DNA of 64,000 bases from Candidatus Pyrohabitans jungbluthii (GTDB taxonomy: Archaea > Hydrothermarchaeota > Hydrothermarchaeia > Hydrothermarchaeales > BMS3B), in the NCBI GenBank assembly GCA_002010065.2, contig MTMD02000014.1:32001-96000 (forward strand), written 5' to 3'. Positions 24,309-58,307 of the stretch are shown here, one piece after another (position 1 is the first letter of the stretch; each line of letters starts with the position of its first letter). Under the pieces are notes generated by a model, which was not told the origin of the DNA, did no database searches, and saw only the letters and a program-made list of their open reading frames with translations. A program made the position numbers and the translations under genes.

Positions 24309-24319
24309 ATCTTCACCTC

Positions 24320-27886: not shown

Positions 27887-28055
27887 GGTTTCCCCCTTAA
27901 GAAGGGTAAGTGATGGCGTTGGGAAGGATTGTTGGAAGCATCTTATTCGTATTTTCAAGAATTTTTATGGTATCCTCTGTCGTCCATAGTTTAGTAGATG
28001 ATAATGTTATTTTAATATTACACAACAAAAACAGTGGCATAATATTTATATATCG

Positions 28056-29150: not shown

Positions 29151-29212
29151 AATTCAAGGCTTAATTCAGATCAAGTTTTATTTTATTGATACTCAAGCGA
29201 TTAGAAGTAAGA

Positions 29213-29503: not shown

Positions 29504-29655
29504 GTTGTATTTTATTTAATTGACAAATTATAAAACTTGCTTCATTGATGGTTTCTTTATCTGCTCGAAAGGATTGAGCCATCTTAATTTTAAGCTTAGT
29601 TAAATTTTAGCAGGTTTAAATTTAAGCATGTGATTAATCTACAAAGAAAGAGGTA

Positions 29656-29730
29656 TGGGCCCGCTGGGCTTCGAACCCAGGACCTTTCGCTTATCAGGCG
29701 AACGCGCTAACCAGGCTGCGCCACGGGCCC
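29656..29730 (-). tRNA. tRNA-Ile(GAT)
   Basis: Minus strand GGGCCCGTGGCGCAGCCTGGTTAGCGCGTTCGC-CTGATAA-GCGAAAGGTCCTGGGTTCGAAGCCCAGCGGGCCCA folds as a cloverleaf; anticodon GAT; no intron; no encoded CCA. Confidence 0.96.
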
Positions 29731-29854
29731 TCGTGATTCGCCTGTGAGTTCACCTCTTAAAATTTTAATGAAAGTGTACCCAAGGTTTATATTCCTCATT
29801 CACCAATATTACCTTCGTTAAGCTTTCCCCTCTTTTCAGGAAGGTGAATACAAG

Positions 29855-31750
29855 TTGGACCTGATGCAGTTCCGCACCACCGAGGAGATTGAGGTTCCCA
29901 AGAACCTCATCGACCAGGTGATTGGTCAGGAGAGGGCGGTTGAGATTATAAAGAAGGCTGCCCTCCAGAAGAGGCATGTTTTACTGATAGGCGACCCTGG
30001 CACAGGGAAGAGCATGCTGGGCCAGGCTATGGCAGAGCTTCTCCCCACGGAGGAGCTTGAAGATATTCTGGTCTACCCCAACCCTGAGGACAAGAACAAC
30101 CCTAAAATAGAGGCGGTAAAGGCAGGCGAGGGCGAGGCGATAATTCAGCGCTTCAAGGAGCAGAAGCGCCGTGTAGAGGCGCCCATAAACACCATGTTCA
30201 AGGTGCTCTTCATAAGCGTAATGTTTCTGGTGCTGTACTACATGCTGGTGCTCCAGCAGCCTTATGTGCTGTTTCTCGGGATAATCGCCTTCGTCTTCCT
30301 GCTGATGGGCAGGCAGTACATTAAGGTTAAAGACGATGTGCTCGTTCCGAAGCTGCTGGTTAACAACAAGGGCAGGACGAAGGCACCTTTTGTGGACGCC
30401 ACAGGCTCGCACGCTGGAGCGTTGCTTGGCGATGTGCGCCACGACCCCTTCCAGAGCGGCGGTTTGGAGACGCCTCCCCACGAGCTGGTTGAGGCGGGGG
30501 CAATCCACAAGGCGCACAAGGGCGTGCTCTTTATAGATGAGATTTCCACTCTCGGTATAGAGAGCCAGCAGGCTCTGCTCACCGCTATGCAGGAGAAGAG
30601 GTTCCCGATTACCGGGCAGAGTGAGCGTAGCTCAGGTGCAATGGTGCGCACAGAGCCAGTGCCCTGTGATTTTATTCTCATTGCGGCGGGCAACCTCGAC
30701 GTGGTCAACAAGATGCATCCCGCCCTGCGCTCCCGTATTAGAGGCTACGGCTATGAGATTTACATGAAGGATGTGATGGACGACACCCGAGAGAATCGCG
30801 ACAAGCTGGTGCAGTTCGTAGCGCAGGAAGTTGTGAAGGACGGCAAGATACCCCACTTCACCCGCGAAGCTGTGATTGAGATAATTGAAGAAGCCAGGAG
30901 GCGCGCTGGCAGAAGGGGTAAGCTTACGCTGAAGCTTCGCGGGCTCGGTGGCTTGGTGCGCGCTGCTGGAGATGTTGCAATAAGCGAGGGTGCGCCCTAC
31001 GTAGAGGCGAGGCACGTAAAGAAGGCAAAGAAGATCGCCCGTACCTTGGAGCAGCAGATTGCCGATAGGTACATCAGTCAGAAAAAGGATTATGAGGTTT
31101 ACAAGGTTGAGGGCGCAGAGGTGGGCAAGGTTAACGGTTTAGCTGTAATCGGCAGCGACAGCGGCGTAATTTTGCCCATTGTAGCCGAGGTGACGCCTGC
31201 ACAGAGCCGCGAGGAGGGCAAAATAATAGCCACGGGCAAGCTGCGCACAATAGCGAGGGAGGCGATTCAGAACGTTAGCGCGATTATCAAGAAGCACACG
31301 GGTAGAGACATCTCGAATTACGACGTTCATATTCAGTTTCTGCAAACATACGAGGGCGTCGAGGGGGACAGCGCCAGCATAAGCGTCGCCACGGCTGTGT
31401 TCTCCGCCCTCGAGAATATACCAGTTGATCAAAGCGTTGCCATGACGGGCTCGCTCAGCGTGCGCGGCGACGTCCTGCCGGTGGGCGGTGTAAACGCGAA
31501 GATAGAGGCTGCGCTCAACGCGGGCATAAAGAAGGTGATAATACCTCACGGAAACCTCAAAGATGTGATGCTTGACCCGGAGAAGCGCAGGAAGATAGAG
31601 ATTGTGCCTGTGAAGACGCTTTCGGAGGTGCTGGAAGAGGCGCTGTGCTGGAGCGAGGATCGCGAGGGCTTGCTCGACCGCGTGAAGAGCATGATTTCCC
31701 TGCCGAGGGTGGACAGGGCTCTGCCGAGTGTTGACAAGCAGGGAAGCTGA
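29855..31750 (+). CDS. lonB: Archaeal membrane-bound ATP-dependent protease LonB
   Basis: GDPGTGKS, TM insertion in the AAA+ domain, LFIDEI, catalytic GDSAS and GGVNAKIEAA. Confidence 0.96.
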   Translation: MDLMQFRTTEEIEVPKNLIDQVIGQERAVEIIKKAALQKRHVLLIGDPGTGKSMLGQAMAELLPTEELEDILVYPNPEDKNNPKIEAVKAGEGEAIIQRFKEQKRRVEAPINTMFKVLFISVMFLVLYYMLVLQQPYVLFLGIIAFVFLLMGRQYIKVKDDVLVPKLLVNNKGRTKAPFVDATGSHAGALLGDVRHDPFQSGGLETPPHELVEAGAIHKAHKGVLFIDEISTLGIESQQALLTAMQEKRFPITGQSERSSGAMVRTEPVPCDFILIAAGNLDVVNKMHPALRSRIRGYGYEIYMKDVMDDTRENRDKLVQFVAQEVVKDGKIPHFTREAVIEIIEEARRRAGRRGKLTLKLRGLGGLVRAAGDVAISEGAPYVEARHVKKAKKIARTLEQQIADRYISQKKDYEVYKVEGAEVGKVNGLAVIGSDSGVILPIVAEVTPAQSREEGKIIATGKLRTIAREAIQNVSAIIKKHTGRDISNYDVHIQFLQTYEGVEGDSASISVATAVFSALENIPVDQSVAMTGSLSVRGDVLPVGGVNAKIEAALNAGIKKVIIPHGNLKDVMLDPEKRRKIEIVPVKTLSEVLEEALCWSEDREGLLDRVKSMISLPRVDRALPSVDKQGS

Positions 31751-38351: not shown

Positions 38352-38936
38352 ATGCCGCCACGGGCGATAAAAACAGTTAGAGACTTAATATACTGGCAAT
38401 ATGCAAAAATAATCGCCGACTCTGCAGGTTTTGGTAAAAGACACTGGCGCTTTGTGATGAGCAGATTCAAAAAGTTTCAGCAAGGAGAAATATTCTGGAA
38501 CGAAATCAGAGAATACGTAAAGGAGAGAGAAAAAAGAGACGAGTGTATATTTTGCGGCAATAAAGCTTCCCTTACTTTAGAGCACATGTTTCCAAGAGCT
38601 TTAGGTGGTCCAAATGATGAGAAGAATATTGTATGGGTGTGTCCCTCCTGCAACTCTTCGAAGAGGGACAGAAGGTTATACGAATATTATGCTCTGAAGG
38701 GAGGGTTGAAGACCGCAAAGTATGACGTTCCCAGAATCGCCGAGGGAAAATACCTGAAGTTCCTCTATGAAATGTTTAGAGATAAGGGTTTGCTTGATGC
38801 TGATATAGAGTACTTAAAAGAAAAAGTCTGTCCGCATTGTGATTTAAGAGAGACATGTGTCAAAGAGAAGAGTGAGGGGAAACTTTCTCCACTCTGTCTG
38901 GATGGGCTGGCTACGTTGTGTTTAATGGGGGAATAA
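38352..38936 (+). CDS. HNH endonuclease
   Basis: CIFCG...EHMFPRALGG...NIVWVCPSCNSSK. Confidence 0.88.
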   Translation: MPPRAIKTVRDLIYWQYAKIIADSAGFGKRHWRFVMSRFKKFQQGEIFWNEIREYVKEREKRDECIFCGNKASLTLEHMFPRALGGPNDEKNIVWVCPSCNSSKRDRRLYEYYALKGGLKTAKYDVPRIAEGKYLKFLYEMFRDKGLLDADIEYLKEKVCPHCDLRETCVKEKSEGKLSPLCLDGLATLCLMGE

Positions 38937-38993
38937 CGCGCCGTTGGTGTAAGAAATAGGTGGTATATCATAGGAGGTGGTAGATCATTCCTC

Positions 38994-39188
38994 TCAACAA
39001 ACTCCTTCTTTGAATTCTATATCAAAAAGGTCTTTATTAAACCGCCTCTTAAAAATATCTTCTGCAAGCTTTTTAAACTCCGGAAACTCCCTCGCAAACT
39101 GGACAAACAGCTCTCTTGCATAATAAACACACCCACCATCAGCAGAAACCATTATTTTAAGAATCTTTTTTGCTTCTTCTTTATTCAT
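38994..39188 (-). CDS. Small hypothetical protein
   Basis: 64 aa MNKEEAKKILKIMVSADGGC..., with a GGAGG RBS; overlaps the M48 gene stop. Confidence 0.55.
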   Translation of the reverse strand: MNKEEAKKILKIMVSADGGCVYYARELFVQFAREFPEFKKLAEDIFKRRFNKDLFDIEFKEGVC

Positions 39189-39945
39189 GTATACCTCCTC
39201 TCCATTCCCTCCATGATACCTCTGAAAATCTATGAGCTTGGAAACATGCCTTATTACCATTAAAAATCGGCAGCTTATAGCCAGTGTGGATATAAAACCA
39301 ATACTCAGTAAGCTTCTTTTCATTGGCTTTAAAGTCTTCAAACTCCTTTTCAACGATGCTCCAGAATCTCTTGCTGTGCCTCTTCTCTTTTAGATGTACT
39401 ACTTCATGGAAAACCACATACCTCATCAACTCCTCTGGAAGCACAGCCAGCTTCAAATTAAAGCTAAGATTGCCGTTTGAGGAGCAGCTTGCCCACTTGC
39501 TCCTCTGATTTTTAATGAAAATTTTCCCAGGCTTCAGACATAACTTCTCAGAATATTCCTCCACAGCTTCCTCAATTTTCTCTCTGAGGATTTTCCTGAT
39601 CTGCTTTTTAATCTTCCTGTGGTGTGCTTCACTTTCAGGATTTATTAATACCTTACCCCTCTCAAAATCGATGCTTGGTTCTTCAGATGGGACTATCTTT
39701 AACTTCCTGCCGAAAAGGATAGCCTCATCTTCATCGAGGCTTTCATTTATCTTATTTACAACCTCCTGAATTTCCCTGTACTTCCGAATTATCCAGCTTT
39801 TCTTCCTCTCTAAAATATCCTCCTCGCTCTTCATATTCTCGGGAAGCACCACAAGAAGCGAGCCCGTTTTGAACTCCAGCCTGGGGTACTTCACTCGCCT
39901 CTTCTCTACTCTGTATTCAACTTCAACCCCGTTGGCTTTAAACAC
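39181..39945 (-). CDS. M48/YgjP (DUF45) metallopeptidase-like protein
   Basis: SKWASCS, LSFNLKL, YVVFHEVVH and HSKRFW; typical position after hsdR; GTG start inferred. Confidence 0.9.
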   Translation of the reverse strand: MFKANGVEVEYRVEKRRVKYPRLEFKTGSLLVVLPENMKSEEDILERKKSWIIRKYREIQEVVNKINESLDEDEAILFGRKLKIVPSEEPSIDFERGKVLINPESEAHHRKIKKQIRKILREKIEEAVEEYSEKLCLKPGKIFIKNQRSKWASCSSNGNLSFNLKLAVLPEELMRYVVFHEVVHLKEKRHSKRFWSIVEKEFEDFKANEKKLTEYWFYIHTGYKLPIFNGNKACFQAHRFSEVSWREWRGGIHE

Positions 39946-39946
39946 A

Positions 39947-42900
39947 TCAGTCCAGCTCTTCAAAGCCCTGCATGATCTTCTCATGTATCTCCTTCCTATC
40001 CTCAAAGCTCAGCTTATCCTTGAACCTCCTCAAAAACCTCATCAGCTCCCTGCCCACCTCCTTCTTAGTGGTGCTCTTCCTGCTCCACCCCTGGAATAGC
40101 TTCCCCTTTTCCACGAGCTGCTGAACAAAACCTTTTACATCTTGAATTAGCTCCTCAGCTTTGCTCAGCCTCTCCTCCAGCACCACAAGCATTAGATACT
40201 CGTGCTCGCTGAGCTTGAGCCTCTTCTTCCTCTCCTCAAGCTCAATGAGATTTTTAACCTCCTTCTCAAGCTGTGAGTAAGCCTCCTCTATCGCTAACTT
40301 CCTCTGCTTCCACTTTTTTATTATCCTCTCCACCCTCTCGGCGATGGGCTCATACACCGGGTTGCTCGCCTTGTCAACGAGCACGTACCTGTTTAGGGTG
40401 AAAATCATGTCGTATATCTTCGCCTCAGCATCGCCATAGGCTTTGCTCAGCTTCTCCAAGTAATCCTCATCCAGCCTGAGAATTGGGAACTCCTCTTTTA
40501 TCCTGTCAACCTCAATGCTTCTGTGTATCGCCTCAAGCGTCTTGGGGTAGTACTCCTCTACTTTTTCTCTCACCACCAGAGCTTTAGGCTCCTGCTCGGG
40601 GTACTCTGCCTCCTCACTGGGGTCTCTCCTCTTTGCGTATCTGCTGTAGGCGATGTAAACCTGAGTTAGCCACCCGAAGCGCGAGGCATGCTGTGCCTTA
40701 ACCGGATGAGAGCCCAGAAACTCAAAGAGGTTTCTGAGCTTTCTGTAGTTTTTGAGAAAGAGCTTTGCCTTTTTTTCATCCTTAGCTAATAATTTTACAG
40801 CAGACATCAGCGTAGCCCTGTCGTCTTTGCCCTTATCAATCCCCTGGAATATCTCCTCTGTGTCCCCAAGAAGTGTGACGAACTCTTGAGCCTTTTCATC
40901 GATGCTTATGAGCACCCCTTCAACGTCTTGCTTCTCGTAGTCTTCTAAGGCTTTCTCGAATTCTGCGAGAATGCCCACGTAGTCAATAATCAGCCCCGCT
41001 TCTTTAACGCTCCTGTACGGGCGGTTGGTTCTCGCCACCGATTGGAGAAGCCTGTGCCCTTTCAGTGGCTTGTCCAGATACATAACCTGTAGCACAGGTG
41101 CATCGAAACCCGTGAGTAGCATGTCGGTAACCACGAGTATCTTGGGCAGCTTGCCATTTTTGAACTTCTCTACAATCTCCTCCTTTATCTCCCCCACATC
41201 CTTGCCCGGGAACCTCTCTCTAAGCTCCTTAAGGTAGTCAGAGATAATCTTTTCCTTCTCAACCCTGTTGTAGGTCATCACCACCTCAACATAGCCTTTC
41301 GGTAAAAGCGTGTCCAACTCCCTCTTGTAGTGCACGCATGAAGCTCTATTCACCGCCACAACCATGGCTTTAAACTTCCCGTCCACCTCCCGCAAAAAGT
41401 GCTCTGCAATATCGCTGGCGACCCTCTTTATCCTTCTCGGATTGGAGAGCACCACCTTAATTTTGTCCAGCTTTCTGCTTATCTTCTTCTCCACCTCTTC
41501 CTTCAGCTCTTCAGGAATTTCCTCCTCTTCATACTCAAGAAAAGCCCTGAGGAGGTTTTTTCTCAGCACTATGTCGCTCTCCATCCTCGTTTGAAAGACT
41601 ATGGGCAGGGTGAAGCCGTCCTTCAGCGAGTCGAGAACAAAGTACTTGTGCAGGTAGAGCTCTCCTTTATCTGGATAGGCAAACTCCAAAAAGGTGTCTC
41701 TCCCCTTCTTTGATATGGGCGTACCCGTGAAAGCAAAGAAGAAGGCGTTTCTAAGTATGTTCTTCATCTGCGAGGCAAGGAGACCGTACTGAGTGCGGTG
41801 TCCTTCGTCTATGAACGCTATAACGTTCTTCCTTGTTGCTATCGTCTCTCCTAAGCCCTGCGCTTCCAGCTCTCTGGCAAGCTCCTCAAGCTCCTTAGGC
41901 TGGAACTTGTGGATAAGGGTGATGAATATCCCCCTCTTTCCTCGCCCGGAGTCGTGGCTCAGCACCTCTCTCAGCTTGGCTATGGAGTCTATCACCTCCG
42001 GCTTTATCTCCACATCGAGTGCTGAAAACTCCTGCCTGAGCTGCTCCTGAAGCTCCACTCTATCGACAACGAAAAAGATGGTGGGGTTCTCTAAGCTTCT
42101 GTGCCTGTACAGCTTGAGCGCCGCGAATATCATTGTCAGCGTCTTTCCGCTGCCCTGCCAGTGCCACACTAGCCCGTGGTTTCTTTGGTCTTCTCCCCTC
42201 AGGTTGCGGAGCACCCTCTCGTAAATCATGTTCGCAGCTTCGTACTGCATGTATCTGGGCAGCACCTTCGTTATCCTGCCCCTCTCTTCCCTCACAAAGG
42301 TGAAGTTCGCCAGTATGTCCAGCAGAGTGCGCCTCCGCAGCATCTCCAGCGTCGCCTCAAGCTCGTCCAGCTCACCAGCGCGCCAGCGGTATATGCTTAC
42401 CTCGTCTGCCTCCCTCACATTGGGGAAGTACCTCGCCTCCTGCTCCGCGGCGATGCTGAACTGCACATATTTAAAAAGCTCGGGCACCGTGCTCTCATAC
42501 TCCTTGACCTGCCTGTAGGCATCCCGCCATGAGACGCTTGCATCCGCAGGATTCTTGCACTCTATCAGCACCAGAGGCATGCCGTTAACGTATAGCACAA
42601 GGTCGGCTCTTATTCTCTCAGCAGCACCCTCAAAGCTCACCTGCCTGCTCACCACAAACTCATTCTTTGCAATATCCTCTAAGTCAACCAAACGAGCAAG
42701 CATCAACTCCCTGCTCTTCTCCAGCTTTATCCCCACACCCCGCCTGAAAAACCTCAGAAACTGCCTCGTGCCATGTATAGACGCGGGCAGGCTCTTTAGC
42801 TCCACAAGTATCCTGTTTATGTCCCCCTCTGTAAGCTTCTCCCCGTTTATCCTCCTCAGAGCACTGGCTAAGCTCCTCTCCAGCAGGGGCTCAGCCAAGC

Positions 42901-43003
42901 TCTCCCTCTCTAACGCCTGCGCTGGCACAAAGCGCCAGCCCTCTTCCACGAGTTTTTCAATGATGTAGTCCTCGACGGCGCTCTTCTCGGTGAAGGTGGG
43001 CAT
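39947..43003 (-). CDS. hsdR: Type I restriction enzyme R subunit
   Basis: ADLVLYVNGMPLVLIECK nuclease motif, QGSGKT, DEGHR, FTGTP, MLLTGFDAP and QSVARTNR. Confidence 0.97.
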   Translation of the reverse strand: MPTFTEKSAVEDYIIEKLVEEGWRFVPAQALERESLAEPLLERSLASALRRINGEKLTEGDINRILVELKSLPASIHGTRQFLRFFRRGVGIKLEKSRELMLARLVDLEDIAKNEFVVSRQVSFEGAAERIRADLVLYVNGMPLVLIECKNPADASVSWRDAYRQVKEYESTVPELFKYVQFSIAAEQEARYFPNVREADEVSIYRWRAGELDELEATLEMLRRRTLLDILANFTFVREERGRITKVLPRYMQYEAANMIYERVLRNLRGEDQRNHGLVWHWQGSGKTLTMIFAALKLYRHRSLENPTIFFVVDRVELQEQLRQEFSALDVEIKPEVIDSIAKLREVLSHDSGRGKRGIFITLIHKFQPKELEELARELEAQGLGETIATRKNVIAFIDEGHRTQYGLLASQMKNILRNAFFFAFTGTPISKKGRDTFLEFAYPDKGELYLHKYFVLDSLKDGFTLPIVFQTRMESDIVLRKNLLRAFLEYEEEEIPEELKEEVEKKISRKLDKIKVVLSNPRRIKRVASDIAEHFLREVDGKFKAMVVAVNRASCVHYKRELDTLLPKGYVEVVMTYNRVEKEKIISDYLKELRERFPGKDVGEIKEEIVEKFKNGKLPKILVVTDMLLTGFDAPVLQVMYLDKPLKGHRLLQSVARTNRPYRSVKEAGLIIDYVGILAEFEKALEDYEKQDVEGVLISIDEKAQEFVTLLGDTEEIFQGIDKGKDDRATLMSAVKLLAKDEKKAKLFLKNYRKLRNLFEFLGSHPVKAQHASRFGWLTQVYIAYSRYAKRRDPSEEAEYPEQEPKALVVREKVEEYYPKTLEAIHRSIEVDRIKEEFPILRLDEDYLEKLSKAYGDAEAKIYDMIFTLNRYVLVDKASNPVYEPIAERVERIIKKWKQRKLAIEEAYSQLEKEVKNLIELEERKKRLKLSEHEYLMLVVLEERLSKAEELIQDVKGFVQQLVEKGKLFQGWSRKSTTKKEVGRELMRFLRRFKDKLSFEDRKEIHEKIMQGFEELD

Positions 43004-43976
43004 TTTTAGTCACTCTTTTTAGATGTTTTTCTAATTCTACATCAAAATTTTTGATTATATTACCTAAAATTATAAATATTTTGTCTAAAGAATCTACTAT
43101 GCCAAGTCCTGGCTTATAATCTGTTGGCTTAAGTTTTCCATCTGGATACCTCGTATATGAAAAATGTGGATAAGTAATTACAGATAATATAAAAATACAA
43201 CCAGAAATTCCAAAGAGTTTAATTATTTTATCTATATTTTCATGAGTATAAGTTAAATTTCTGTCTATAGAATTCAATTCATGTTCGGGTAAATTTACCT
43301 TTTTTAGATTTTTAAGTAAATCTATTTTGAATTTTTTTATAGTTTTGCGGAGCTGTCTTATATCCACATTTTTATCAATTTTAATGAATTTTTTACATAA
43401 CTCTAAATAAACATAAATTTCATTTTTATCCATTTTTGCTAATCGTTCTGGTTTACGTTCTATGTATTTTTTTAGTTTATCTATATCAGATTTATTAATT
43501 TTCTTTTTCAAATAATTGCATTTATTCAAACAATCAATTACCTTTTCCATATTATTAAGAAATATAAAAAATGTTCTCGGCGTAATATGGCTGATAGTTT
43601 TATTTTCATCATTCTTCCTAAATAATTTGGTTAATAAACCACCTTTTATTTCTTTTTTCCTGCCGTATAAGTCATTCTTTTTGATGATGCCTAAATATAG
43701 GCCATATCCTTTGGAAATTTTCTCTACAGCTTGCTGTAAATGATATACTGACAATGACCAAATTTTTTCTTTACTTAATAATTTTGCTGCTTTATAATCC
43801 TCTTTTGCACAATATAAAAGAGAAGAAATATATTCTGCATTTCTAATATGTGTTTGGTTATGAATATATTTTTCAAGGTATTGATATAGCTCTAACACGT
43901 CTTTTAAACTAATATTTAGGCCGGCAGTTTTATTTGCAGTATTAATCGCAACTTGAATAGCCTTAATATTTGTCAA
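42957..43976 (-). CDS. Expanded HEPN-domain protein (AT-rich)
   Basis: AKEDYKAAKLL...YHLQQAVEKISKG, SH and YTRYPD match the COG2250-type HEPN signature, split by a long helical insert. Confidence 0.75.
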   Translation of the reverse strand: MTNIKAIQVAINTANKTAGLNISLKDVLELYQYLEKYIHNQTHIRNAEYISSLLYCAKEDYKAAKLLSKEKIWSLSVYHLQQAVEKISKGYGLYLGIIKKNDLYGRKKEIKGGLLTKLFRKNDENKTISHITPRTFFIFLNNMEKVIDCLNKCNYLKKKINKSDIDKLKKYIERKPERLAKMDKNEIYVYLELCKKFIKIDKNVDIRQLRKTIKKFKIDLLKNLKKVNLPEHELNSIDRNLTYTHENIDKIIKLFGISGCIFILSVITYPHFSYTRYPDGKLKPTDYKPGLGIVDSLDKIFIILGNIIKNFDVELEKHLKRVTKNAHLHREERRRGLHH

Positions 43977-45736
43977 ATTTTCACCCTCCTTCTCCCTGTG
44001 AGCAAATCATTCATCAACCCCTTCTTAATCCTCTCTAGCTTCTCCTTTCGCTTCTTCTCCAGCTCCAGTTTTTTGTCCATTGTGCTCAGGATTTCGGCGA
44101 TTTTTTGTTGTTCGGGAAGGGGTGGAAGTGGGATTTTAAAATTCTTTATAATTCTAACATTTAATTGTGGCTGAGCAGTACCATACGCAATCCTCTTAAT
44201 TTGAGTTTTAAGAAAAGGTGTTCTAAAAAGTAAACATAGGAATTTGTTATCAATATTTTTATTTTTGTTTCTAAGGATGACCATTCCTGAGTTTATTCGT
44301 ATGTGTTCATAGGGCACATTATCATCATAATATCCAACATTTCCAATTGTTCCACGAGTGGTTAAAACAATATCGTATCTTTTCAATTTTCCCTTGCCCA
44401 TTTTAGAATCTTTTTCTTTAGAAATGAATTGAGTTTCTGTAAATTTAAATCCACTTTCGGTAACATTTTTTGCATTTAAAAAGAGACAAAATCCTTTATT
44501 CGAAAAATCTGATTGTTTAGGATAATTCACTCCCCTATCTCCATCTATTACTTCTATATTGGCATGTACTAGCCTAACCACCTCCCATTCCTCTGGAATC
44601 CTACCAATCTCGGAATCCTTAAATTTTCTATATTCTCCCTTCAAAAATTGCTCAAATGTTATGGCATGTCCACCAAATTCAGTGGTTACTAATCTCAGAT
44701 TTTTGTCATTGCTTACAAGAATTAGATTATTTTTAATGGAAGTTTCGGCTATTAGTGCATCTCTTATTTGATTTTCTTTTGTTTTTTTTCCAGTTTTTTC
44801 ATCTAATTCTTGAAGCTTCAATAATATTCTATCATATAAATCTCCTTCACCAAATTTTGAATTATCCCATCTAGAAATGTCGAAAACTGTTGTTTCTGTC
44901 AGAATTACGTTTTGTTCTAATTTTTTAAAAATTTCTAAAAGATTGCTTCTTCTTTCTAATTTCTCAGTTTTTTTAATGTTTTCAATTTCATCTTTTTGAA
45001 TGTGTGTAATGTAATAGTTATATTTGGTAGGGAGTTGATCCACACTTATTTTACCGTCTAATATGGCATCAAATATATTAGTATCAAACATAAAACCATT
45101 AATAATTCCTTTTGTCAAAAGCTCCTGCATCAAGCCCCTCTTCAGCCTCTCAGTCTTGGCTATGACGGCGCTGACTTTCTGGATGGCATTGTCCACCGTG
45201 CTTAAGATTTCGGCGATTTTGTGTTGTTCTGGGAGTGGTGGAAGGGGGATTAGGAGATTTTCTAGGTTTTTTCTACTAATTCTTGACCTTGTTGCCCCTG
45301 CTGATAATCTCATTGCTTCTGCTAATATCTTGGGACTATTTAAAATATATACTAGGAATCTTTTATCTACTCTTTTTTTATTTACTTTAAGTATTGTAAT
45401 ATCTACAGCAACAATATAAGGATAGGGAAGTTCTGGAGCAATGCATGCTCTCCCTATTGGTTCAGGCATTCTTGAAATTAAAATATCCTCTTTTGGTCGC
45501 ACAAAAGTACAACTTAGTTTTTTTGCTGAATCATATGAAATAAATCTATTTGATTTATCTAAAAATCTACCTATTCCAATATCCCCAACTTGTAAGAGTC
45601 TAACACCCTCAGAAGTATAATATTTTTTAAGTATCCAATCACCATCTTTTAACTTTCCAATTTCCTTATCCCCAAGCCTCATAACCTCCCAATCCTCTGG
45701 GATTTCTCCGATTGGGGTTTGCTTAAATTTTGTCAT
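43973..45736 (-). CDS. hsdS: Type I RM specificity subunit HsdS with an internal PIN domain
   Basis: Two TRD-CR halves (IGEIPEDW / IGRIPEEW; PLPPLPEQxKIAEILST twice); about 157-aa insert with FDTN, E, RDALIA and VSND. Confidence 0.92.
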   Translation of the reverse strand: MTKFKQTPIGEIPEDWEVMRLGDKEIGKLKDGDWILKKYYTSEGVRLLQVGDIGIGRFLDKSNRFISYDSAKKLSCTFVRPKEDILISRMPEPIGRACIAPELPYPYIVAVDITILKVNKKRVDKRFLVYILNSPKILAEAMRLSAGATRSRISRKNLENLLIPLPPLPEQHKIAEILSTVDNAIQKVSAVIAKTERLKRGLMQELLTKGIINGFMFDTNIFDAILDGKISVDQLPTKYNYYITHIQKDEIENIKKTEKLERRSNLLEIFKKLEQNVILTETTVFDISRWDNSKFGEGDLYDRILLKLQELDEKTGKKTKENQIRDALIAETSIKNNLILVSNDKNLRLVTTEFGGHAITFEQFLKGEYRKFKDSEIGRIPEEWEVVRLVHANIEVIDGDRGVNYPKQSDFSNKGFCLFLNAKNVTESGFKFTETQFISKEKDSKMGKGKLKRYDIVLTTRGTIGNVGYYDDNVPYEHIRINSGMVILRNKNKNIDNKFLCLLFRTPFLKTQIKRIAYGTAQPQLNVRIIKNFKIPLPPLPEQQKIAEILSTMDKKLELEKKRKEKLERIKKGLMNDLLTGRRRVKI

Positions 45737-46686
45737 CTTAAAAGCCTCCGGCTCAATTTTTCACATATCTGATAAAGTTGTGGTATCTTCTCCATGACTG
45801 AGGGTACAATCACACCAAAACAAAAGCCAACATAATGTGCCAATATGTTAATCAAGTTGGTACCTCTTCGTATTTCAGAAGGTATTAGATTTGGTAGGGA
45901 AAATAGATAAACTATAGCTATTACAAAAACTCCCACTCTATAAGATAAAATAGGCGGGTGATTAACAAGCTCTTTTAGTTTTTTGAGATAGTGAATAGAT
46001 ATTTTTTGCATGGTTTTAAGATTGATTAAAAGAAACACAATTGAAATAACAGCCAATAGTACTTTTATATGTATTGGTGTGCCTAAATTAATAATTCCCA
46101 CTATTGAGAGATTTACAAGGATAAGAAAGCTAAAAAATTCTGCTTTTACTGAGAGAGTTGATACCTTCTTTAAATAATTATAGACTGCAAAAATAAAATA
46201 ACCTATCAAACCAGAAACAATTGCAGAAAAACCACTTATTTTGGGGATGTTTGGCGTAAAAATAATGTTACTTAAAGAAGATACAAAAGGTAAAATAATA
46301 AAAATTAAAAATGATGATACATAAAAGATTTTCTTATTTGTCTCAACATTGAATATCAAAAAGATTATAAGAAAATATGTGATTATGTTGCTTAAAAAAT
46401 GTTTATACTCTAAATGGGTGTAATGGGAGAGGAACATAGTTAATATCGTTGGGTTTGAGACTATTAAGGTAAAAGATTCCTTCATATCTGGAGGTAATGA
46501 ATATATTAATACGAGGATTCCAGGCAAGATCAAGAAGAAAAGCAAAAAGTCATACAGATTCCAGATAACCAGGACTGGATTAAGTTTTATCACTTTTTCA
46601 ATACATTTCCTTTTGACCAAATAATCTCCAAAAACGCCAAGTAATTGCCAAATAATTGCCAAGTTATTTGAGGACATAGTGGACAC
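45733..46686 (-). CDS. Rhomboid-family intramembrane serine protease (AT-rich)
   Basis: HLEYKHFLSN (HxxxxHxxxN), GFSA (catalytic Ser), AHYVG (catalytic His); multiple TM helices. Confidence 0.78.
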   Translation of the reverse strand: MSTMSSNNLAIIWQLLGVFGDYLVKRKCIEKVIKLNPVLVIWNLYDFLLFFLILPGILVLIYSLPPDMKESFTLIVSNPTILTMFLSHYTHLEYKHFLSNIITYFLIIFLIFNVETNKKIFYVSSFLIFIILPFVSSLSNIIFTPNIPKISGFSAIVSGLIGYFIFAVYNYLKKVSTLSVKAEFFSFLILVNLSIVGIINLGTPIHIKVLLAVISIVFLLINLKTMQKISIHYLKKLKELVNHPPILSYRVGVFVIAIVYLFSLPNLIPSEIRRGTNLINILAHYVGFCFGVIVPSVMEKIPQLYQICEKLSRRLLR

Positions 46687-48010
46687 CTCGTCCCTTCCCT
46701 CTTACCTGAAGAATGCCCTTTGCGACCAGCTCATTCAAATCAAGCCTGGCGCCTTCATCTGAGAGTCCAGAGAGTTCTCTATATTCCCTATTCGTAATCC
46801 TCCCCTTCTCCTTTACGTACATCACCGCCTTGATCTGCCTTTCATTCAATCCCAGGCTGCGGAGGTATTCTTCTGTGTAGATGTCCTTTCTGAAGATCAC
46901 CCAGAAGCCCCGGCGCTCCTCAAACTCGGGCTCAGGAAGCGATGCGCTGAGGCAGGCTTTTCTCATCTTGTCTATGCCGGAGCCCCACTGTTCGATTAGC
47001 CCCATGTCGTAGAAGACTCCTGCGATGCCCTTGTTTCTGAGTACTGAGGAGTGGGGTTTGTAGAGGTCTTCGATGGTGATGCCGTAGGGTAAGCCTCCAG
47101 GGCTCCACACTACAAGCCTGTCGTCGTATATCCTGATTTCAACGCTGGCAGGGATGGTGTAGTCCCTGTGGCAGACGGCGTTGATAACCGCCTCCCTCAA
47201 AGCTTCCAGAGGATATTCCCAGACCTCCTCCCTCTGGGGTTCGCCTGTCATCACAAAGCTTACGCTGATGTGCTTGCGAATAAAGTCCATTGCTTCGTCC
47301 ACCTGCTCAATTACTGTGCCGCCTATCATGCGGTCGTCGATTATCGTGGTTTCTCCTCTGAACCTGCCGCAGTGCACCGTCGCTTGAGAGAGAATACGCT
47401 GAGGTTCTCTGCCGAAGAGAAGCAAAGCCGCCCAGGTGGGCTGATTGTCTTTTATCAGGTCTAACTTTTCAAGAACCTGAAGGTGGTCTTCGTCCTCGGA
47501 GATATTCCTCCTTCCTGCGCTGTTGGCTCTCTTTATATATCTTTTTACCTTCTCGGGGTCTATATCCTCCAAGGTTGCGTCCCTCGCTGGGAGCTTGTCC
47601 CAGCTCATCCCAGCGGAGGCGAAATGCACCTGGGCAATCTCCTGGGGCTGCATAGCTCTGTTGCTGTTTCCCACCCTTCTGTAACATCTTCCTCGCACAG
47701 ATACCGGCTTGATTGGAAACTCTTTAATCGTTATAACAACAACCTTTTTCCCATCTGCCTCCTCAAGCTCAACCTCAGGGATAACTCTCGGCTCTGTGCT
47801 CTGAGAAATCTGATTTGCCCACTCTCGCAGAGTTTCTTTTCCGATATCCACGCCCTTAATCTCGCCGCTGTCGGAGACGCCTATGATTATTGCCCCACCC
47901 CTTGTGTTGGCAAAGGCTCCGGCGGTGACGATTACCTCCCTGTTGAAGTATTCCTTAAATTCGACGGTATCTGACTCTCCTTTACTTATTAGTTCATTTA
48001 AATCCACCAT
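46664..48010 (-). CDS. Schlafen/AlbA_2 + HATPase_c_4 + wHTH protein
   Basis: GESDTVEFKE, AFANTRGG, REAVINAVCHRDY, SPGGLP, IEQWGSGI; C-terminal HTH. Confidence 0.9.
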   Translation of the reverse strand: MVDLNELISKGESDTVEFKEYFNREVIVTAGAFANTRGGAIIIGVSDSGEIKGVDIGKETLREWANQISQSTEPRVIPEVELEEADGKKVVVITIKEFPIKPVSVRGRCYRRVGNSNRAMQPQEIAQVHFASAGMSWDKLPARDATLEDIDPEKVKRYIKRANSAGRRNISEDEDHLQVLEKLDLIKDNQPTWAALLLFGREPQRILSQATVHCGRFRGETTIIDDRMIGGTVIEQVDEAMDFIRKHISVSFVMTGEPQREEVWEYPLEALREAVINAVCHRDYTIPASVEIRIYDDRLVVWSPGGLPYGITIEDLYKPHSSVLRNKGIAGVFYDMGLIEQWGSGIDKMRKACLSASLPEPEFEERRGFWVIFRKDIYTEEYLRSLGLNERQIKAVMYVKEKGRITNREYRELSGLSDEGARLDLNELVAKGILQVRGKGRGVHYVLK

Positions 48011-49784
48011 CACCATTAAACCCCAGCTCCGCCAGATAATCCTCAATCTTCTCCTCTACGCTGGCGATCTCCCTCTCTATAGCCCTGAGCTCTTCCCACT
48101 CCTTGGCTACGTCTATCTCCTCAAGCTCCTCCTGCGGGAAGACGTAGAGGGTGACGTTGAGGTTGAAATCGTTCACTTTAATCTCATCAAGGCTCACAAC
48201 CCTTGAAAATCCGTCCCCGTCCTTGAATTCTCTATATGCCTGGGCTATCTTTGAGATGTGCTCCTCGCTGAGGCGGTTGAGCTTCCTCACCTCGGGGTGC
48301 TGCTCGTACTCCTGAGAGGCGTTGATGAATAGCACCTTACCCCTTCGCTCTTCAGGCTTGTTCTTGTTGAAGATAAGCACAGCGCCTGGTGCACCAGTGT
48401 TGTAAAACAGCTTCTCAGGGAGCAGAATCACACACTCTACTAAGTCTTCCTCCAGCGCCCTCTGCCTTATGGCTCGCTCTTTGCCTCCGCGGAATAGGCA
48501 ACCGTTGTCAATAACCACGCCTACCCTACCCTTTTCGTCATCTGCGCTCGCCAGCATGTGCTGAATCCATGCCCAGTCTGCTGACTGCTTCGGGGTAAAG
48601 CCGTACTTGTACCTCTCCCTCCAGAAGTCCGCCTTTTTTAAAACGCTCTCGTCGTAACCGTCCTGATTCCATGGGGGATTTGCTATAACCACGTGGAATT
48701 TCTTAAACATGCTGTCCTGGAGAAACTTTGGATAGATCAGGGTATCACCCTGCCTAAGCTCTGCATCCCTAATATCGTGAATGTAGAGGTTCATCTTGCA
48801 CAGCGCCAAGGTAGTGGCGTTGGCTTCCTGACCGTAGAGGAAGAGCCTCTTTGCCTCCTCTGGACCGTGCTTCTCCTTAACGTGGTTGTAGGCGAGGATG
48901 AGCATGCCTCCAGAGCCACAGGCTGGATCATAAACTTCCTCTCCCGGCTTGGGATCGAGAATCTCAACCAGTAGCTTTATAACCTCCCGTGGGGTATATA
49001 CCTCGCCCTCCTTTGCCTTCTGCGGTGCAAAATAGCGCAGAACCCATTCGTAGGCGTCGCCTAAAATATCCGGCGAAACATGGTGGAGTTTTCTGGCGCT
49101 GAATAGCTCAACAAGCTGCCTGAGAATCTCAAAGTTCTCAGTGCTGCTGGTGAACTGAAGAAAGTCTGCCCTGTCAACGACGTCTTTAAGCTCCGGGTTG
49201 CGCTCAGCGATAACCTTAAGCGCCTGGGAAAGCTTCACAGGTAGCTGGTTCACATCCCTTCTGATATTCTCCCACAGGTACTCCTGGGGTATATCAAAAT
49301 CGTGGTAATACTTGCTCTTCGCCTCCTCCCTCGCCTCTTCTTCGGTTAAACCATCGGCAAGAGCTTCCCTGTAAGCCCGCTCGTACTCCAGCTCCCACTT
49401 GTCGCTTATCCTCTTGAGGAAGAGGAGAATGAGGATAAACTTGTAGTCCACCCTGGTTCTTATTAAATCTGCCGCCTTCTTTAGAAGACTCTCCAGCTCC
49501 TCACGGGTTAGCTTCTCTCCGGGGGAAAGTCCCTCTCTGATTATGTCCCTCTTGCTCTTCAAGATATACACCCGCCTTCTGGCGTCGGCTTCGTCTATTC
49601 TCGCTTCAAGCCAGCCCGCTTTCCTAAGCTCTGAGAGGATTACGTTAATGTTATTCTTAGGGTCTTTAAACCTCTCCCTCAATACCCGGTAGGCATCTTC
49701 TCTTGTAAAAGCTTTTTCTTGGAACACTTCAAAAAGGGCTTCGTGCCTTACTTCGAGCCACCTGGGGAGTGTAATTTCACCCAT
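47994..49784 (-). CDS. hsdM: Type I RM N6-adenine methyltransferase with N-terminal winged helix
   Basis: GEVYTPREV, DPACGSGG, ANPPW and LFYNTG motifs. Confidence 0.96.
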   Translation of the reverse strand: MGEITLPRWLEVRHEALFEVFQEKAFTREDAYRVLRERFKDPKNNINVILSELRKAGWLEARIDEADARRRVYILKSKRDIIREGLSPGEKLTREELESLLKKAADLIRTRVDYKFILILLFLKRISDKWELEYERAYREALADGLTEEEAREEAKSKYYHDFDIPQEYLWENIRRDVNQLPVKLSQALKVIAERNPELKDVVDRADFLQFTSSTENFEILRQLVELFSARKLHHVSPDILGDAYEWVLRYFAPQKAKEGEVYTPREVIKLLVEILDPKPGEEVYDPACGSGGMLILAYNHVKEKHGPEEAKRLFLYGQEANATTLALCKMNLYIHDIRDAELRQGDTLIYPKFLQDSMFKKFHVVIANPPWNQDGYDESVLKKADFWRERYKYGFTPKQSADWAWIQHMLASADDEKGRVGVVIDNGCLFRGGKERAIRQRALEEDLVECVILLPEKLFYNTGAPGAVLIFNKNKPEERRGKVLFINASQEYEQHPEVRKLNRLSEEHISKIAQAYREFKDGDGFSRVVSLDEIKVNDFNLNVTLYVFPQEELEEIDVAKEWEELRAIEREIASVEEKIEDYLAELGFNGDGGFK

Positions 49785-49863
49785 ATTCTTATCGTGAAAG
49801 AAGAAGTATAAAAAAGTTACTATTTTATGAGCTAATTATATAAGCTTAATTGTATTGAACTTA

Positions 49864-51396
49864 TTAAAATTTAATTCTCCCATTTTCCACCGGCAACACC
49901 ACCTCAACCCCATCCAACCTCTCCACAAAGAACTCCGGCCTCTCGGTATGCACCGGCACCACCACCTCGGGTTCAATCTCCTCCACCATCCTGATAATCT
50001 CATCGCCTGAGGCGTGTCCGCTAGCGTGGTAGCCGCGCTGGAACTCTGGCACTGGCTTGCCGTTTTTCTCAACAATCTCGAAGCCCCTGACCTCGAGGTT
50101 GAAAAACTTCAGCCAGTTGTATAAGCGCAGGAAGTCGATGACCTGCTCCTCTGTGTATGCCTCGCTGCTTGAGTAAATGTATGTTCCGCCTTCTGGTTTA
50201 ATGTCCAGCAGGTGCTTCATGTCCCAGAAGCTGAAGCACAGGATGTAGCTCTCTGGCGAGGTGGCTATCTCGCTGGGATCAACCAGCTTGTCCTCATACC
50301 TCTCGTGCACCTCTCTTTCAAAGGCGTCCCTCTTTGCCTTTAACTCCTTATAAACCAAAAGCTCATTCATTCTATCAACGCACTGGGCACATCTCAGAGC
50401 GTCAAGGAGATAGGCGTCCTTAGCTAGGACTACGAGCTCTCGCCCAGCCTCTTTTGCAATCCTTGCGAAGGTGTCCAGGCGCTCAAAGTTTCTCGGCGAG
50501 AAGTCGGCAATCACCAGCTGCTCTTCATCAAGTGTAGCCTCAAGGCAGGTCTCATACACCTGCTGCTCCGAAACCTCAGCCTCTTCAACCCCCGCTCTTG
50601 TGCCCTCGATTATGAGAACCTGCGGGGCGAGCGCCTTCGCCTCTTTAATAAACCTCTCAGTCTTCTCTTTAAACGTGCCATGGGCGCGGATATCGCCTGT
50701 GTAGACCACCCAGCCGGCTGAGGTTTCGACGGCGCAGGCAGCTGCACCATAGATGGAGTGGTCTACATCAAACACCTTAACCTCAAGGCCAAGCTCGTCT
50801 AAGGTTTTAAGCTTCCCCGCATCCAAGCCTCTGGAGCTGGGGCAGCGCTGCCAGAAGTCCTCAAGTTCGCTGTTTGCATCGCCTGCTATAACATAGTCCC
50901 TGCCAATGTATGGTGCCTTTCTCCAGTGGCTGGTGTTGAGCACTCTCGCATCGCCGGGAAAAGCCTCCCTGGGTGCGGAGTAGGCAACCTCTGCGTTGAA
51001 GCTCAAGCCACAGTCGTTCATCGCTTTGAGTATCGCCGCCGTTGTGGGGGTTGCTATCGTGGGGATATCCAGGTCAAGCAGGCCCAGGTTGCCCGCATGG
51101 TCGAGGTGCGCATGGGAGATGAACACAGCTTCTATGTTAAGCCTCGGCATGCGTGAGAGGTCAACATCGCTGGGGATTAGGTCGGAGCGGTAGTTGTTTA
51201 TCCAGGGTATCAGGCCCATGTGCAGCAGGTCGTGGATACCTCTCGCTGGCCTGGGGCTGAGAAACTCCTCGTAGAAGTCGTACATCTTCTTATAGTTGAT
51301 TCCGAAATCGAGGAGAATGCCTCTGCCATCGCTTTCCAGGAAAATCTTGTTACCCCCGATGCTCCTCGCCCCGTCGAAGATGGTTATGCTGGGCAT
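49864..51396 (-). CDS. MBL/beta-CASP ribonuclease J-like hydrolase
   Basis: IGGNKI, SHAHLDH, VDHS, YTGD, HASGHA and PVHTE motifs. Confidence 0.85.
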   Translation of the reverse strand: MPSITIFDGARSIGGNKIFLESDGRGILLDFGINYKKMYDFYEEFLSPRPARGIHDLLHMGLIPWINNYRSDLIPSDVDLSRMPRLNIEAVFISHAHLDHAGNLGLLDLDIPTIATPTTAAILKAMNDCGLSFNAEVAYSAPREAFPGDARVLNTSHWRKAPYIGRDYVIAGDANSELEDFWQRCPSSRGLDAGKLKTLDELGLEVKVFDVDHSIYGAAACAVETSAGWVVYTGDIRAHGTFKEKTERFIKEAKALAPQVLIIEGTRAGVEEAEVSEQQVYETCLEATLDEEQLVIADFSPRNFERLDTFARIAKEAGRELVVLAKDAYLLDALRCAQCVDRMNELLVYKELKAKRDAFEREVHERYEDKLVDPSEIATSPESYILCFSFWDMKHLLDIKPEGGTYIYSSSEAYTEEQVIDFLRLYNWLKFFNLEVRGFEIVEKNGKPVPEFQRGYHASGHASGDEIIRMVEEIEPEVVVPVHTERPEFFVERLDGVEVVLPVENGRIKF

Positions 51397-54960: not shown

Positions 54961-55377
54961 ATGGCAAATGAGTGTGAGGAATATGTAAAGGAGAAGATGA
55001 AGATAGTACCCAGGTTTTTGAAGCCAATCTGCCAGGTGCACCCCGAGGCTGCGAAGCGCTTCGCAGACTTCTATGAAACGATTTTCGGCGATGGCGCGCT
55101 GGACAGGAAGACAAAAGAGCTTATTTTTACTGCGATAGGCGTTGCCACGGCTTCACCTCGCTGCATAGTCCACGTTATCCCTGCGATTGAGGCTGGGGCA
55201 ACAGACGAGGAGATTCTCGAGGCTGTGGCGGTGGGCTTCGTAGGTGCAGGATTCTATCCAAATAACCCCGGTATCCCCTACTGTTTCGAGTATGCCGCCA
55301 AGGTGCTCGAAATAGCGCAGAAGTACAGAAAGGGCGAGGACTGGGAGTACCTCAAGCCTCCAGAGTTCAGGGGCTAA
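54961..55377 (+). CDS. Carboxymuconolactone decarboxylase/AhpD-family protein
   Basis: DGALDRKTKELI...SPRCIVH...AGATDEEILEA. Confidence 0.88.
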   Translation: MANECEEYVKEKMKIVPRFLKPICQVHPEAAKRFADFYETIFGDGALDRKTKELIFTAIGVATASPRCIVHVIPAIEAGATDEEILEAVAVGFVGAGFYPNNPGIPYCFEYAAKVLEIAQKYRKGEDWEYLKPPEFRG

Positions 55378-57700: not shown

Positions 57701-58234
57701 TTATACTGTGCGCCTGCTTTCCAGCGTTACCTCCACGTTGACAGGGTTGCGCAAGGTACTACCCACAGGCGAGGTTTTCACAACGTCTTCGTGAAGCTTC
57801 TGAAGCTCTTCCTTGCTCACAGGCGTCTTGGTCTTGAGGAACACCCTGGCGCGGACGTTGGTAAACCCTGGCCACACCTTCTCAGGCGGCTCAAGGGCAA
57901 GGAAGCCTGGAAGATCTATATCACCCTCAACTTCAACCTCAACCTTCGCAAGCTCTATTCCGCGAACAGCGGCGTTCATAACGTAGCCCACAATTAGGCA
58001 GGCGCCGAAGGCACCGAGAACGAACTCCACCATGTTGGGCGCAGTGTTTGTGCCTCCTAGGTCAAGGGGCTCGTCCATTCTTATGGTGAAGTCCCTTATT
58101 CTCACCTCTTCCTTGAAGCCTCCCTTCCACTTGGCGCTGGCGCGCCACAGAGTCTTTCCGAGCTCAGGGTTTGCCTTTACTGTCTCCACCACCTTCTGGA
58201 GGTACTCCACATCCAGGCCGTTCACAACTTTCAT
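57701..58234 (-). CDS. OsmC-family protein
   Basis: DEPLDLGGTNTAPN..E...GAC...SPV. Confidence 0.88.
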   Translation of the reverse strand: MKVVNGLDVEYLQKVVETVKANPELGKTLWRASAKWKGGFKEEVRIRDFTIRMDEPLDLGGTNTAPNMVEFVLGAFGACLIVGYVMNAAVRGIELAKVEVEVEGDIDLPGFLALEPPEKVWPGFTNVRARVFLKTKTPVSKEELQKLHEDVVKTSPVGSTLRNPVNVEVTLESRRTV

Positions 58235-58307
58235 TCTCAACACCTCAGGTAAAAATGCGCTAACCAGATATGATAAAAAAAGTGGCAGAAAAAGGGTCAA
58301 AACATGG

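Follow-up and report, generated by a model that had tools for sequence, protein, structure and literature searches.

Candidatus Pyrohabitans jungbluthii, an archaeon of the Hydrothermarchaeota, carries in the 64,000-nucleotide stretch analysed here (contig MTMD02000014.1, positions 32,001 to 96,000; hereafter the window) an intact type I restriction–modification (RM) operon with accessory genes in the gaps between its M and S genes and between its S and R genes. Its specificity subunit, HsdS, contains between its two halves a domain whose PIN fold is confirmed by the agreement of sequence, acidic residues and predicted structure, and such an HsdS, here called HsdS::PIN, recurs in numerous lineages of bacteria and archaea, always within type I operons. 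An earlier note, made from the sequence alone, had described the locus as RM backed by abortive-infection-type effectors; by analogy with known systems, we put the chance that the embedded nucleases would serve as a second, suicidal defence behind RM at roughly one half. That idea restates the published PrrC/EcoprrI concept; what appears to be new is a PIN domain built into HsdS.

The locus is a minus-strand run of eight overlapping or abutting genes at window positions 38994–49784 (open reading frame (ORF) list of the window and profile searches), in the order hsdM, AlbA_2/Schlafen, rhomboid-like, hsdS::PIN, HEPN, hsdR, YgjP-like and a 64-residue ORF. All nine genes that the earlier note had placed, a convergent HNH gene included, were found in the ORF list in the same order and positions, and its description of overlapping or abutting genes agrees with the junction lengths: 4-nt overlaps at both the rhomboid/hsdS and hsdS/HEPN junctions, 8 nt between the YgjP-like gene and the small ORF, and 47 nt between HEPN and hsdR, the remaining overlaps varying with the start codon chosen. 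Families were assigned by Pfam, NCBIfam and PADLOC profile searches of the locus ORFs. A 79-nt A/T-rich spacer with TATA-like motifs, found by inspection 5' of hsdM (49785–49863, minus strand; GC content 0.34 at 49700–49899), is a candidate archaeal promoter for the whole run. As these observations concern gene content, chance is not at issue.

The core enzyme is complete. HsdM (596 residues; 47994–49784, minus strand) matches Pfam N6_Mtase at 2.4e-115 and HsdM_N at 1e-15, with its S-adenosylmethionine-binding and catalytic motifs intact (DPACGSG at 286, NPPW at 369); HsdR (1018 residues; 39947–43003, minus strand) matches TIGR00348 at 1.9e-211, with 704 bits against a cut-off of 284.55, and has both a PD-(D/E)xK nuclease (D134, E148-x-K150; QxxxY at 165) and the superfamily 2 motor motifs GSGKT at 284 and DEGH at 399; HsdS::PIN (587 residues; 43973–45736, minus strand) matches Methylase_S in two stretches (3.3e-53). 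Everything expected of a type I enzyme was found in HsdM, HsdS and HsdR and, since all catalytic and assembly motifs are present, the system should, to judge from these motifs, be able to methylate, translocate and cut. The first 90 or so residues of HsdM (49515–49784) form an N-terminal extension of winged-helix type (MsvR-like helix–turn–helix (HTH), residues 42–79, E 7.6e-5 in NCBIfam), which may be an autoregulatory DNA-binding domain. Direct repeats within hsdS (76 nt at 80% identity and 57 nt at 72%; D1 and D2 mark the duplicated halves) are of the kind that mediates exchange of target-recognition domains (TRDs).

The PIN-like nuclease domain (44630–45103, minus strand), recognised from profiles, predicted fold and conserved acidic residues, separates the two halves of HsdS: TRD1 and the central helix occupy residues 1–210, the PIN domain about 212–368, and TRD2 with the C-terminal helix 369–587, the conserved helices lying at 168–207 and 540–580 in an AlphaFold model. 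In the closest solved relative, the M. jannaschii S subunit 1YF2 (2.4e-47), both halves and the conserved helices align, but a linker of only about four residues leads from the first conserved helix into the second half, at the point where here there is a PIN domain of about 157 residues. Because it is placed in the short linker joining the HsdS halves, the PIN domain must belong to the M2S1 core.

Pfam scores for this domain fall below the curated cut-offs (PF01850, 21.6 versus 23.6 bits; PIN_4, 18.8 versus 21.9), and a few relatives exceed that of PF01850 (26.4 bits in L014, 27.4 in P0187 and 25.7 in P0096). A profile of 90 family sequences, however, reached eight PDB chains at E ≤ 1, the best being 1y82 (2.3e-4) and VapC4 (6e-4); all eight are PIN-like, six judging by their names, while 1y82 and 3ix7 are taken here to be PIN-like proteins. 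The AlphaFold model of HsdS (predicted local distance difference test (pLDDT) score 79.4, predicted template-modelling (pTM) score 0.66) has alternating strands and helices at residues 215–365, where pLDDT is 65–88. Searched with Foldseek, it matched first nine S subunits, led by 1YF2 (E 1.2e-24, target-normalised TM score 0.74), and after them VapC, FitB, Nmd4 and HARP chains at E 1.2e-3 to 3.9e-3 and target-normalised TM scores of 0.40–0.63. Five acidic residues, D218, D249, E250, D326 and D344, are invariant in all 19 aligned HsdS::PIN sequences, and the PIN acidic residues are invariant or at least 90% conserved across 90 family members; D218, D249/E250, D326 and D344 presumably correspond to the canonical PIN active-site positions, a match made by motif rather than by superposition. 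An hhalign comparison of the insert profile with the single VapC of locus L002, one sequence as target, gave an uninformative probability of 0.3. The PIN domain that the earlier note had read in hsdS is thus borne out by family profile, predicted fold and invariant acidic residues where Pfam by itself stays below threshold; this call, like that of the rhomboid-like protein discussed below, is weak for the single protein and holds because family-level evidence was added. The pairing is not of the VapBC type: the PIN domain is internal to HsdS, and Pfam found no antitoxin-like gene among the locus ORFs.

The architecture is not confined to this archaeon. A search with the insert found 32 other HsdS::PIN proteins (412–594 residues), all with Methylase_S, whose inserts are 45–64% identical to that of the window, and in an alignment of 19 of the 33 HsdS::PIN proteins the insert is more conserved than the target-recognition domains. 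The family to which it belongs is large: searched exhaustively, its profile returned 1588 representatives at E ≤ 1e-3, of which 880 reach ≤ 1e-10 and 172 reach ≤ 1e-30. Among the best 150 of these, 20 are at least 500 residues long with an internal domain and most others are stand-alone proteins of 140–210 residues; Pfam, run on 31 of the 150, gave only marginal PF01850 scores, and half-size PIN–TRD forms were present. Embedded PIN domains cluster on a FastTree domain tree of 173 rows, requiring 8 changes where shuffled labels need 43.6 on average and none of 500 shuffles reached so low a value, and on a quick IQ-TREE subset tree of 96 rows, comprising 50 embedded rows, randomly drawn stand-alone rows and a few added by hand, they need 9 changes against 32.2 when shuffled. 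The insert had no tblastn match in plasmid and phage collections.

Two further members of the family are fusions of another kind. P0104 (465 residues) joins HEPN_AbiU2 to this same PIN family, and in P0149 (637 residues) an HsdS::PIN is extended at its C-terminus by an NTP_transf_2/Polbeta (MNT-type) nucleotidyltransferase; together they point to recurrent links of the PIN family to HEPN/MNT modules.

We compared the locus with 14 others, obtained from 55 pattern matches by a genome scan made with an alignment of the insert only; 168 ORFs were called in these loci, and the 98 ORFs closest to the matches were scanned against Pfam. HsdS::PIN is present in seven of the 14 (L001, L002, L003, L005, L006, L009 and L014). 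hsdM lies upstream of it in all five loci with upstream sequence and hsdR downstream in all five with downstream sequence, where a YgjP-like gene follows hsdR in four (L001, by BLASTP; L002, L003 and L005, by Pfam). The cargo comprises ABC-3C genes in an omnitrophote (L001), MazE and VapC in an uncultured archaeon (L002), UvrD and DUF3800 in both Mesoaciditoga (L003) and an actinomycete (L005), and DUF3800 in a member of the Moraniibacteriota (L006); a locus from the Neisseriaceae (L014) has HsdS::PIN in a half-size form. The nearest relative, from the Promethearchaeota (L009, HsdM 68% identical), shares the order M–AlbA_2–cargo–S, its cargo being an AlbA_2-HATPase_c_4-HTH gene and two ORFs of no known family.

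Some of this cargo deserves mention for its own sake. DUF3800 genes (L003:14338-15051, L005:9558-10244, L006:3020-3724) occur in three of the six full-size HsdS::PIN operons, and UvrD-like helicases in two (L003, L005). In L009 a 418-residue ORF between AlbA_2 and hsdS::PIN (L009:2783-4039) has no Pfam match, and its C-terminus shows, by eye, a D...E-x-K pattern resembling PD-(D/E)xK nucleases.

Stand-alone PIN relatives of about 170–210 residues, 71–78% mutually identical, stand in a repeated module in three other fetched loci (L008:6913-13150, L010:6297-11670, L011:6891-11632), which come from Moraniibacteriota of the candidate phyla radiation and a Bdellovibrionales metagenome-assembled genome. 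The gene upstream encodes a RelA_SpoT protein of about 1010 residues in L008 and L011 (89% identical) and an unrelated 1220-residue protein in L010; that downstream encodes a protein of about 360 residues in all three (54–60% identical). The modules adjoin MmeI-type, EcoRI-methylase and GmrSD genes and look like a candidate defence module. The analysis also flags a large PIN family, the 1588 representatives at E ≤ 1e-3, with members in L008, L010 and L011 adjoining restriction, methylase and other defence-related genes.

Several known systems resemble the locus in part. Nucleases embedded in RM operons have been put forward as a second, suicidal line for PrrC/EcoprrI and for HEPN genes (PMC3710099, PMC3632139, PMC3874165). 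EcoprrI/PrrC likewise has a nuclease gene within a type I (IC) hsd operon, with RM proposed as the first line and a nuclease silenced by the RM complex as the second (PMC3874165, PMC3632139), but PrrC is a separate ABC-ATPase and HEPN protein, whereas here the candidate nuclease with comparative support, the PIN domain, is fused into HsdS. Matelska et al. 2017 (PMC5499597, section 17) associate PIN nucleases with hsdM/hsdS/hsdR, sometimes without an antitoxin; those are separate, transcriptionally coupled genes rather than an internal domain of the S subunit, and that article remarks that no direct interaction between a PIN nuclease and RM has been demonstrated. An extra domain on an archaeal S subunit is also known from the Methanohalophilus ASCH–HsdS fusion (Bell et al. 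2020, PMC7641849), in which ASCH is a predicted modified-base reader and no nuclease. The rloA/rloB hsd loci of C. jejuni hold accessory ORFs between hsd genes at a conserved position, but these belong to other gene families, are bacterial and include no fused domain (PMC2928727). We found no description of a PIN domain inside HsdS in the open-access literature, a scope that leaves out subscription journals and REBASE notes; the whole word 'PIN' is absent from the text examined of PMC3874165, and Methylase_S, HsdS and PF01420 are absent from the supplementary text of PMC5499597, with its Supplementary Figure S7 outside that check.

Three of the genes form a cassette of foreign composition. The rhomboid-like, hsdS::PIN and HEPN genes make up 3.66 kb of low GC (43004–46663, from per-gene values): 0.301, 0.334 and 0.252, against 0.509 for hsdM, 0.513 for AlbA_2, 0.513 for hsdR and 0.53–0.56 in the flanks, about 20–25 points under the neighbours, with a sharp switch exactly at the hsdR ATG (43003) and the AlbA_2 stop (46664). 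We infer that a 3.66-kb specificity cassette with two passengers, probably from a low-GC donor, replaced an earlier S region by recombining at or in the flanking genes. So sharp a cassette would mean that an exchange of specificity genes can carry accessory cargo along with it, which bears on how defence repertoires are reshuffled.

The HEPN protein (339 residues; 42957–43976, minus strand; PF05168/HEPN-T type), the last 15 or so codons of which overlap the 5' end of hsdR in another frame, scores 26.3 bits against a Pfam cut-off of 22, over residues 53–104 only. It has 27 homologues, with D60, Q82, E85, K86, K89, H130, H271, R276, Y277 and Y287 invariant, and the family profile reaches 1wol (2.1e-4), which we take to be a HEPN protein, and 1o3u (0.012). 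Against HEPN structures the N-terminal helices align in one piece and the RYPD segment in another, which indicates a core interrupted by some 150 residues of helical insert. The predicted structure is confident and all-helical (pLDDT 81.9, pTM 0.80), and since it has no significant neighbour in the PDB, the insert has no recognised fold and membership of HEPN is a sequence-level assignment only. The top Foldseek rows, pore-forming toxins and designed helical proteins at E 0.4–1 and probability ≤ 0.25, were rejected as generic long-helix noise. Pfam and NCBIfam found no ATPase domain in the protein, and Pfam found no nucleotidyltransferase domain, and hence no MNT partner, in any locus ORF. The likeness to HEPN-T extends to the Pfam family, the RM context and an R-x-x-D variant with a conserved His elsewhere, of the kind that Anantharaman et al. 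2013 (PMC3710099, Table 1) note for several HEPN-T members in which D takes the place of H, but here there is the helical insert in the core and no MNT partner. PrrC and RloC differ in having an N-terminal ABC-type NTPase, which this protein lacks, so that the resemblance to them lies in the proposed logic only.

The rhomboid-like protein (317 residues; 45733–46686, minus strand) is a divergent intramembrane serine protease on family-level evidence. By itself it has no Pfam match at E ≤ 0.01 and stays under the curated cut-offs (Pfam Rhomboid, 14 versus 22.6 bits; NCBIfam rhombosortase, 30.9 versus 84, at 2.3e-7); with its ten homologues, nine of 11 family sequences match Pfam Rhomboid at E ≤ 1, the best at 3.2e-6. 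Ser151 (GFSA), His281 (AHYVG) and Asn97 are invariant in all 11 and lie within predicted transmembrane segments, and HxxxxHxxxN occurs at residues 88–97; in reading these we assume the usual rhomboid motif definitions, a Ser–His dyad and an HxxxxHxxxN helix. In the ESM Atlas the protein falls with archaeal Rhomboid clusters (feature score 0.96, 222 shared features, structure TM score 0.71). Of about eight predicted transmembrane segments, three separate the Ser helix from the His helix; canonical rhomboids have a single segment there. A profile search of the PDB with the family returned no rhomboid, only two chance matches to ATP-synthase subunit 8. The rhomboid named in the earlier note therefore holds at the level of the family, single-protein scores being sub-threshold. 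The protease is probably lineage-specific cargo with no supportable role, and its association with RM, a single instance, carries little weight. On two haloarchaeal plasmids (L015:7231-8714, L016:7220-8759) a rhomboid-like gene is divergent to a hypothetical gene of about 175 residues at equal spacing, and genes for a TRAM-domain protein and an AAA ATPase lie near the pair.

The AlbA_2/Schlafen protein (46664–48046, minus strand; up to 460 residues, start uncertain) combines AlbA_2 with HATPase_c_4 and an HTH, as in COG2865 (SLFN_AlbA_2 6.1e-24, HATPase_c_4 1e-25); PADLOC gives domain-level matches to pAgo-associated proteins, and a counterpart stands at the same position in L009. The YgjP-like zinc metallopeptidase (39181–40005, minus strand; PF01863 4.9e-41) has HEVVH at residue 200 and is the protease that the earlier note had called M48, presumably after the NCBI name for the YgjP-like family. 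It appears to be a regular companion of RM, possibly acting on HsdR. Of the folds that the earlier note had counted, the two proteases in the RM unit stand, as a divergent rhomboid-like and a YgjP-like peptidase; of the three potential RNase folds, the Schlafen (AlbA_2) family and the PIN fold are confirmed and HEPN is recognised by sequence, but without Rx4-6H.

How might these parts work together? In the layered-defence reading, RM would be the first line. The assembled complex would hold a latent nuclease activity of the PIN domain in check, and this activity would be set free or switched on once restriction is blocked or overwhelmed, in the way proposed for PrrC and EcoprrI; HEPN and AlbA_2/Schlafen would be additional effectors or sensors on the same pattern, exchangeable for one another. 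The genes are tightly packed and co-oriented behind one A/T-rich spacer, the PIN domain is covalently part of the RM specificity subunit, and the gathering of several nucleases and proteases in one cluster suggests back-up antiviral defences. The reading is partly supported, comparative support being confined to the PIN link: of the layered defence claimed earlier, the tie between PIN and RM stands, and the association of rhomboid and HEPN, and with it a fixed system, finds no support in the related loci. Two of the checks that the earlier note proposed divide in the same way. Across hsdM–hsdR intervals PIN in hsdS recurs, but rhomboid-like and HEPN genes occur in none of the 14 loci and the cargo differs; PADLOC matches the RM subunits, AlbA_2 and HNH, but not rhomboid, HEPN, YgjP or the small ORF.

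Type I RM operons with embedded nucleases are the textbook coupling of immunity to abortive infection, and PrrC is, to our knowledge, the only worked example; it is a separate protein whose contact with RM is hard to study. If the specificity subunit itself carries a nuclease, conserved across many bacterial and archaeal lineages, it would offer a genetically simple model of this coupling with fixed stoichiometry, in which recognition and the second activity could be told apart by point mutations in a single gene.

A number of observations weigh against the layered reading. Gap cargo varies from locus to locus across the seven HsdS::PIN loci, and 39 rhomboid-like and HEPN family proteins had no tblastn match in any of the 14; with both families absent from all of them, the cargo is variable and not one fixed system. 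The lengths of the contigs listed for the PIN, rhomboid-like and HEPN families, compared by eye, have only that of the window's own contig (191334) in common, a weak hint against a recurring trio. PADLOC has models, but none matching rhomboid, HEPN, YgjP or the small ORF, and the HEPN protein had no tblastn match in a plasmid collection. Six haloarchaeal plasmids carry distant rhomboid-like homologues (23–28% identity), and in all three inspected the gene lies outside RM operons. In the HEPN family the canonical Rx4-6H is absent, R276-Y277 lying in TRYPD with His130 and His271 conserved elsewhere, so RNase activity is uncertain, and no PDB chain matched the HEPN model in Foldseek at E ≤ 0.001. 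Pfam has no model of its own for the PIN family, the majority of whose members stay under the PF01850 cut-off; deep branches of its tree are weak, and the starred branches force at least 3–4 state changes, so that a single origin of the fusion is unsupported. The cassette may have been imported recently and not yet be functionally integrated, the YgjP peptidase may equally be a housekeeping or regulatory part of RM, and the second-line role is proposed by analogy only.

A stronger form of the layered reading would make HsdS::PIN a distinct, widespread type I class, in which the core carries its own metal-dependent nuclease, licensed by the state of M2S1, as a switch from immunity to suicide that neighbouring HEPN modules and, in relatives, MNT modules would tune; the licensing trigger might be a DNA-mimic anti-restriction protein in the DNA groove or stalled restriction. 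We regard this as a rather unlikely proposal.

Alternatively, the accessory genes besides the fused PIN would be passengers or selfish addiction modules, lodged in recombination-prone type I gaps and moving with hsdS cassettes, without joint function with the RM enzyme. The cargo is different in every HsdS::PIN locus (ABC-3C, MazE–VapC, UvrD, DUF3800, or AlbA_2 and unknowns), the S–R gap of L002 holds a textbook MazE–PIN toxin–antitoxin pair, and none of the 14 loci has a member of the rhomboid or HEPN family; the base composition of the cassette is foreign, distant rhomboid-like homologues lie among hypothetical and mobile-element genes on haloarchaeal plasmids, and rloA/rloB, with no known function, sit inside the hsd loci of C. 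jejuni (PMC2928727). Yet the 4-nt start/stop overlaps flanking hsdS imply translation coupled to that of an RM subunit, HEPN-T genes are reported to cluster repeatedly with RM operons (PMC3710099, Table 1), an article that proposes a multi-pronged defence for RM-linked HEPN genes, and among members of the same PIN family one protein is a fusion with HEPN and another a fusion with an MNT-type nucleotidyltransferase. On this balance we think a passenger origin for all of the cargo unlikely.

That the PIN domain is instead part of restriction itself, as a DNA- or structure-specific nuclease that processes the loops reeled in by HsdR, with site-proximal or additional cleavage, seems improbable. 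Its rigid insertion beside TRD2 with almost no linker, the complete hsdR accompanying HsdS::PIN in all five loci with downstream sequence, and the lack of a conserved antitoxin-like partner next to HsdS::PIN in the loci would fit such a role, and the PIN-like superfamily includes DNA and flap nucleases besides RNases (PMC5499597); but VapC-type RNase toxins and RNA-processing PINs are the closest proteins of known structure, in sequence as in fold, the HsdR nuclease motifs are intact, so that an extra DNase is unneeded, and the same family also has stand-alone members that are encoded away from RM operons.

Least probable of all is that some accessory genes control restriction, YgjP degrading HsdR and the AlbA_2 HTH and HsdM winged helix regulating the operon, so as to shield the host while a new specificity establishes itself: YgjP-like genes follow hsdR in four of five related loci and in the window, both the AlbA_2 protein and the N-terminus of HsdM have an HTH, exchange of the S cassette, which evidently can take place, brings a risk of self-restriction, and HsdR proteolysis underlies restriction alleviation in E. 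coli, but no observation in the analysis supports a substrate for the YgjP-like protein, and the PIN, HEPN and rhomboid genes are left unexplained.

At the downstream end of the run, the small ORF (38994–39188, minus strand), most likely of 64 residues, has its ATG preceded by GGAGGAGG; it has no Pfam match and no counterpart in related loci. The convergent gene (38352–38936, plus strand; GC 0.417), the end of which is 57 nt from the small ORF, encodes an HNH endonuclease of 194 residues (HNH_5 5e-11) with weak PADLOC matches to PtuB and PDC-M01B and an IscB-type HNH region in NCBIfam; it is at most a putative member of the system.

No integrase, adjacent tRNA or flanking direct repeats were found at the locus edges, and an Rfam scan gave no match within the locus. 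The remainder of the window holds archaeal housekeeping and energy genes, including LonB (TIGR00764), MtaA-type methyltransferases, FrhB and HdrA-like proteins and a branched-chain polyamine synthase domain, and thus the locus appears as a small islet in an archaeal, probably thermophilic, chromosome. The sole tRNA of the window, tRNA-Ile at 29656–29730, stands in a low-GC stretch (0.35–0.40; 28001–30000), and a further low-GC stretch (0.44–0.46; 14001–19000) holds Zn-ribbon proteins and ORFs of 946 and 557 residues without a family match. At 23331–24455 (minus strand) two in-frame contiguous ORFs, both of the OS_HP2 (seleno)protein family, are split only by a TGA followed by an ATG, and further selenoprotein-family matches lie at 54961–55377 and 57701–58336.

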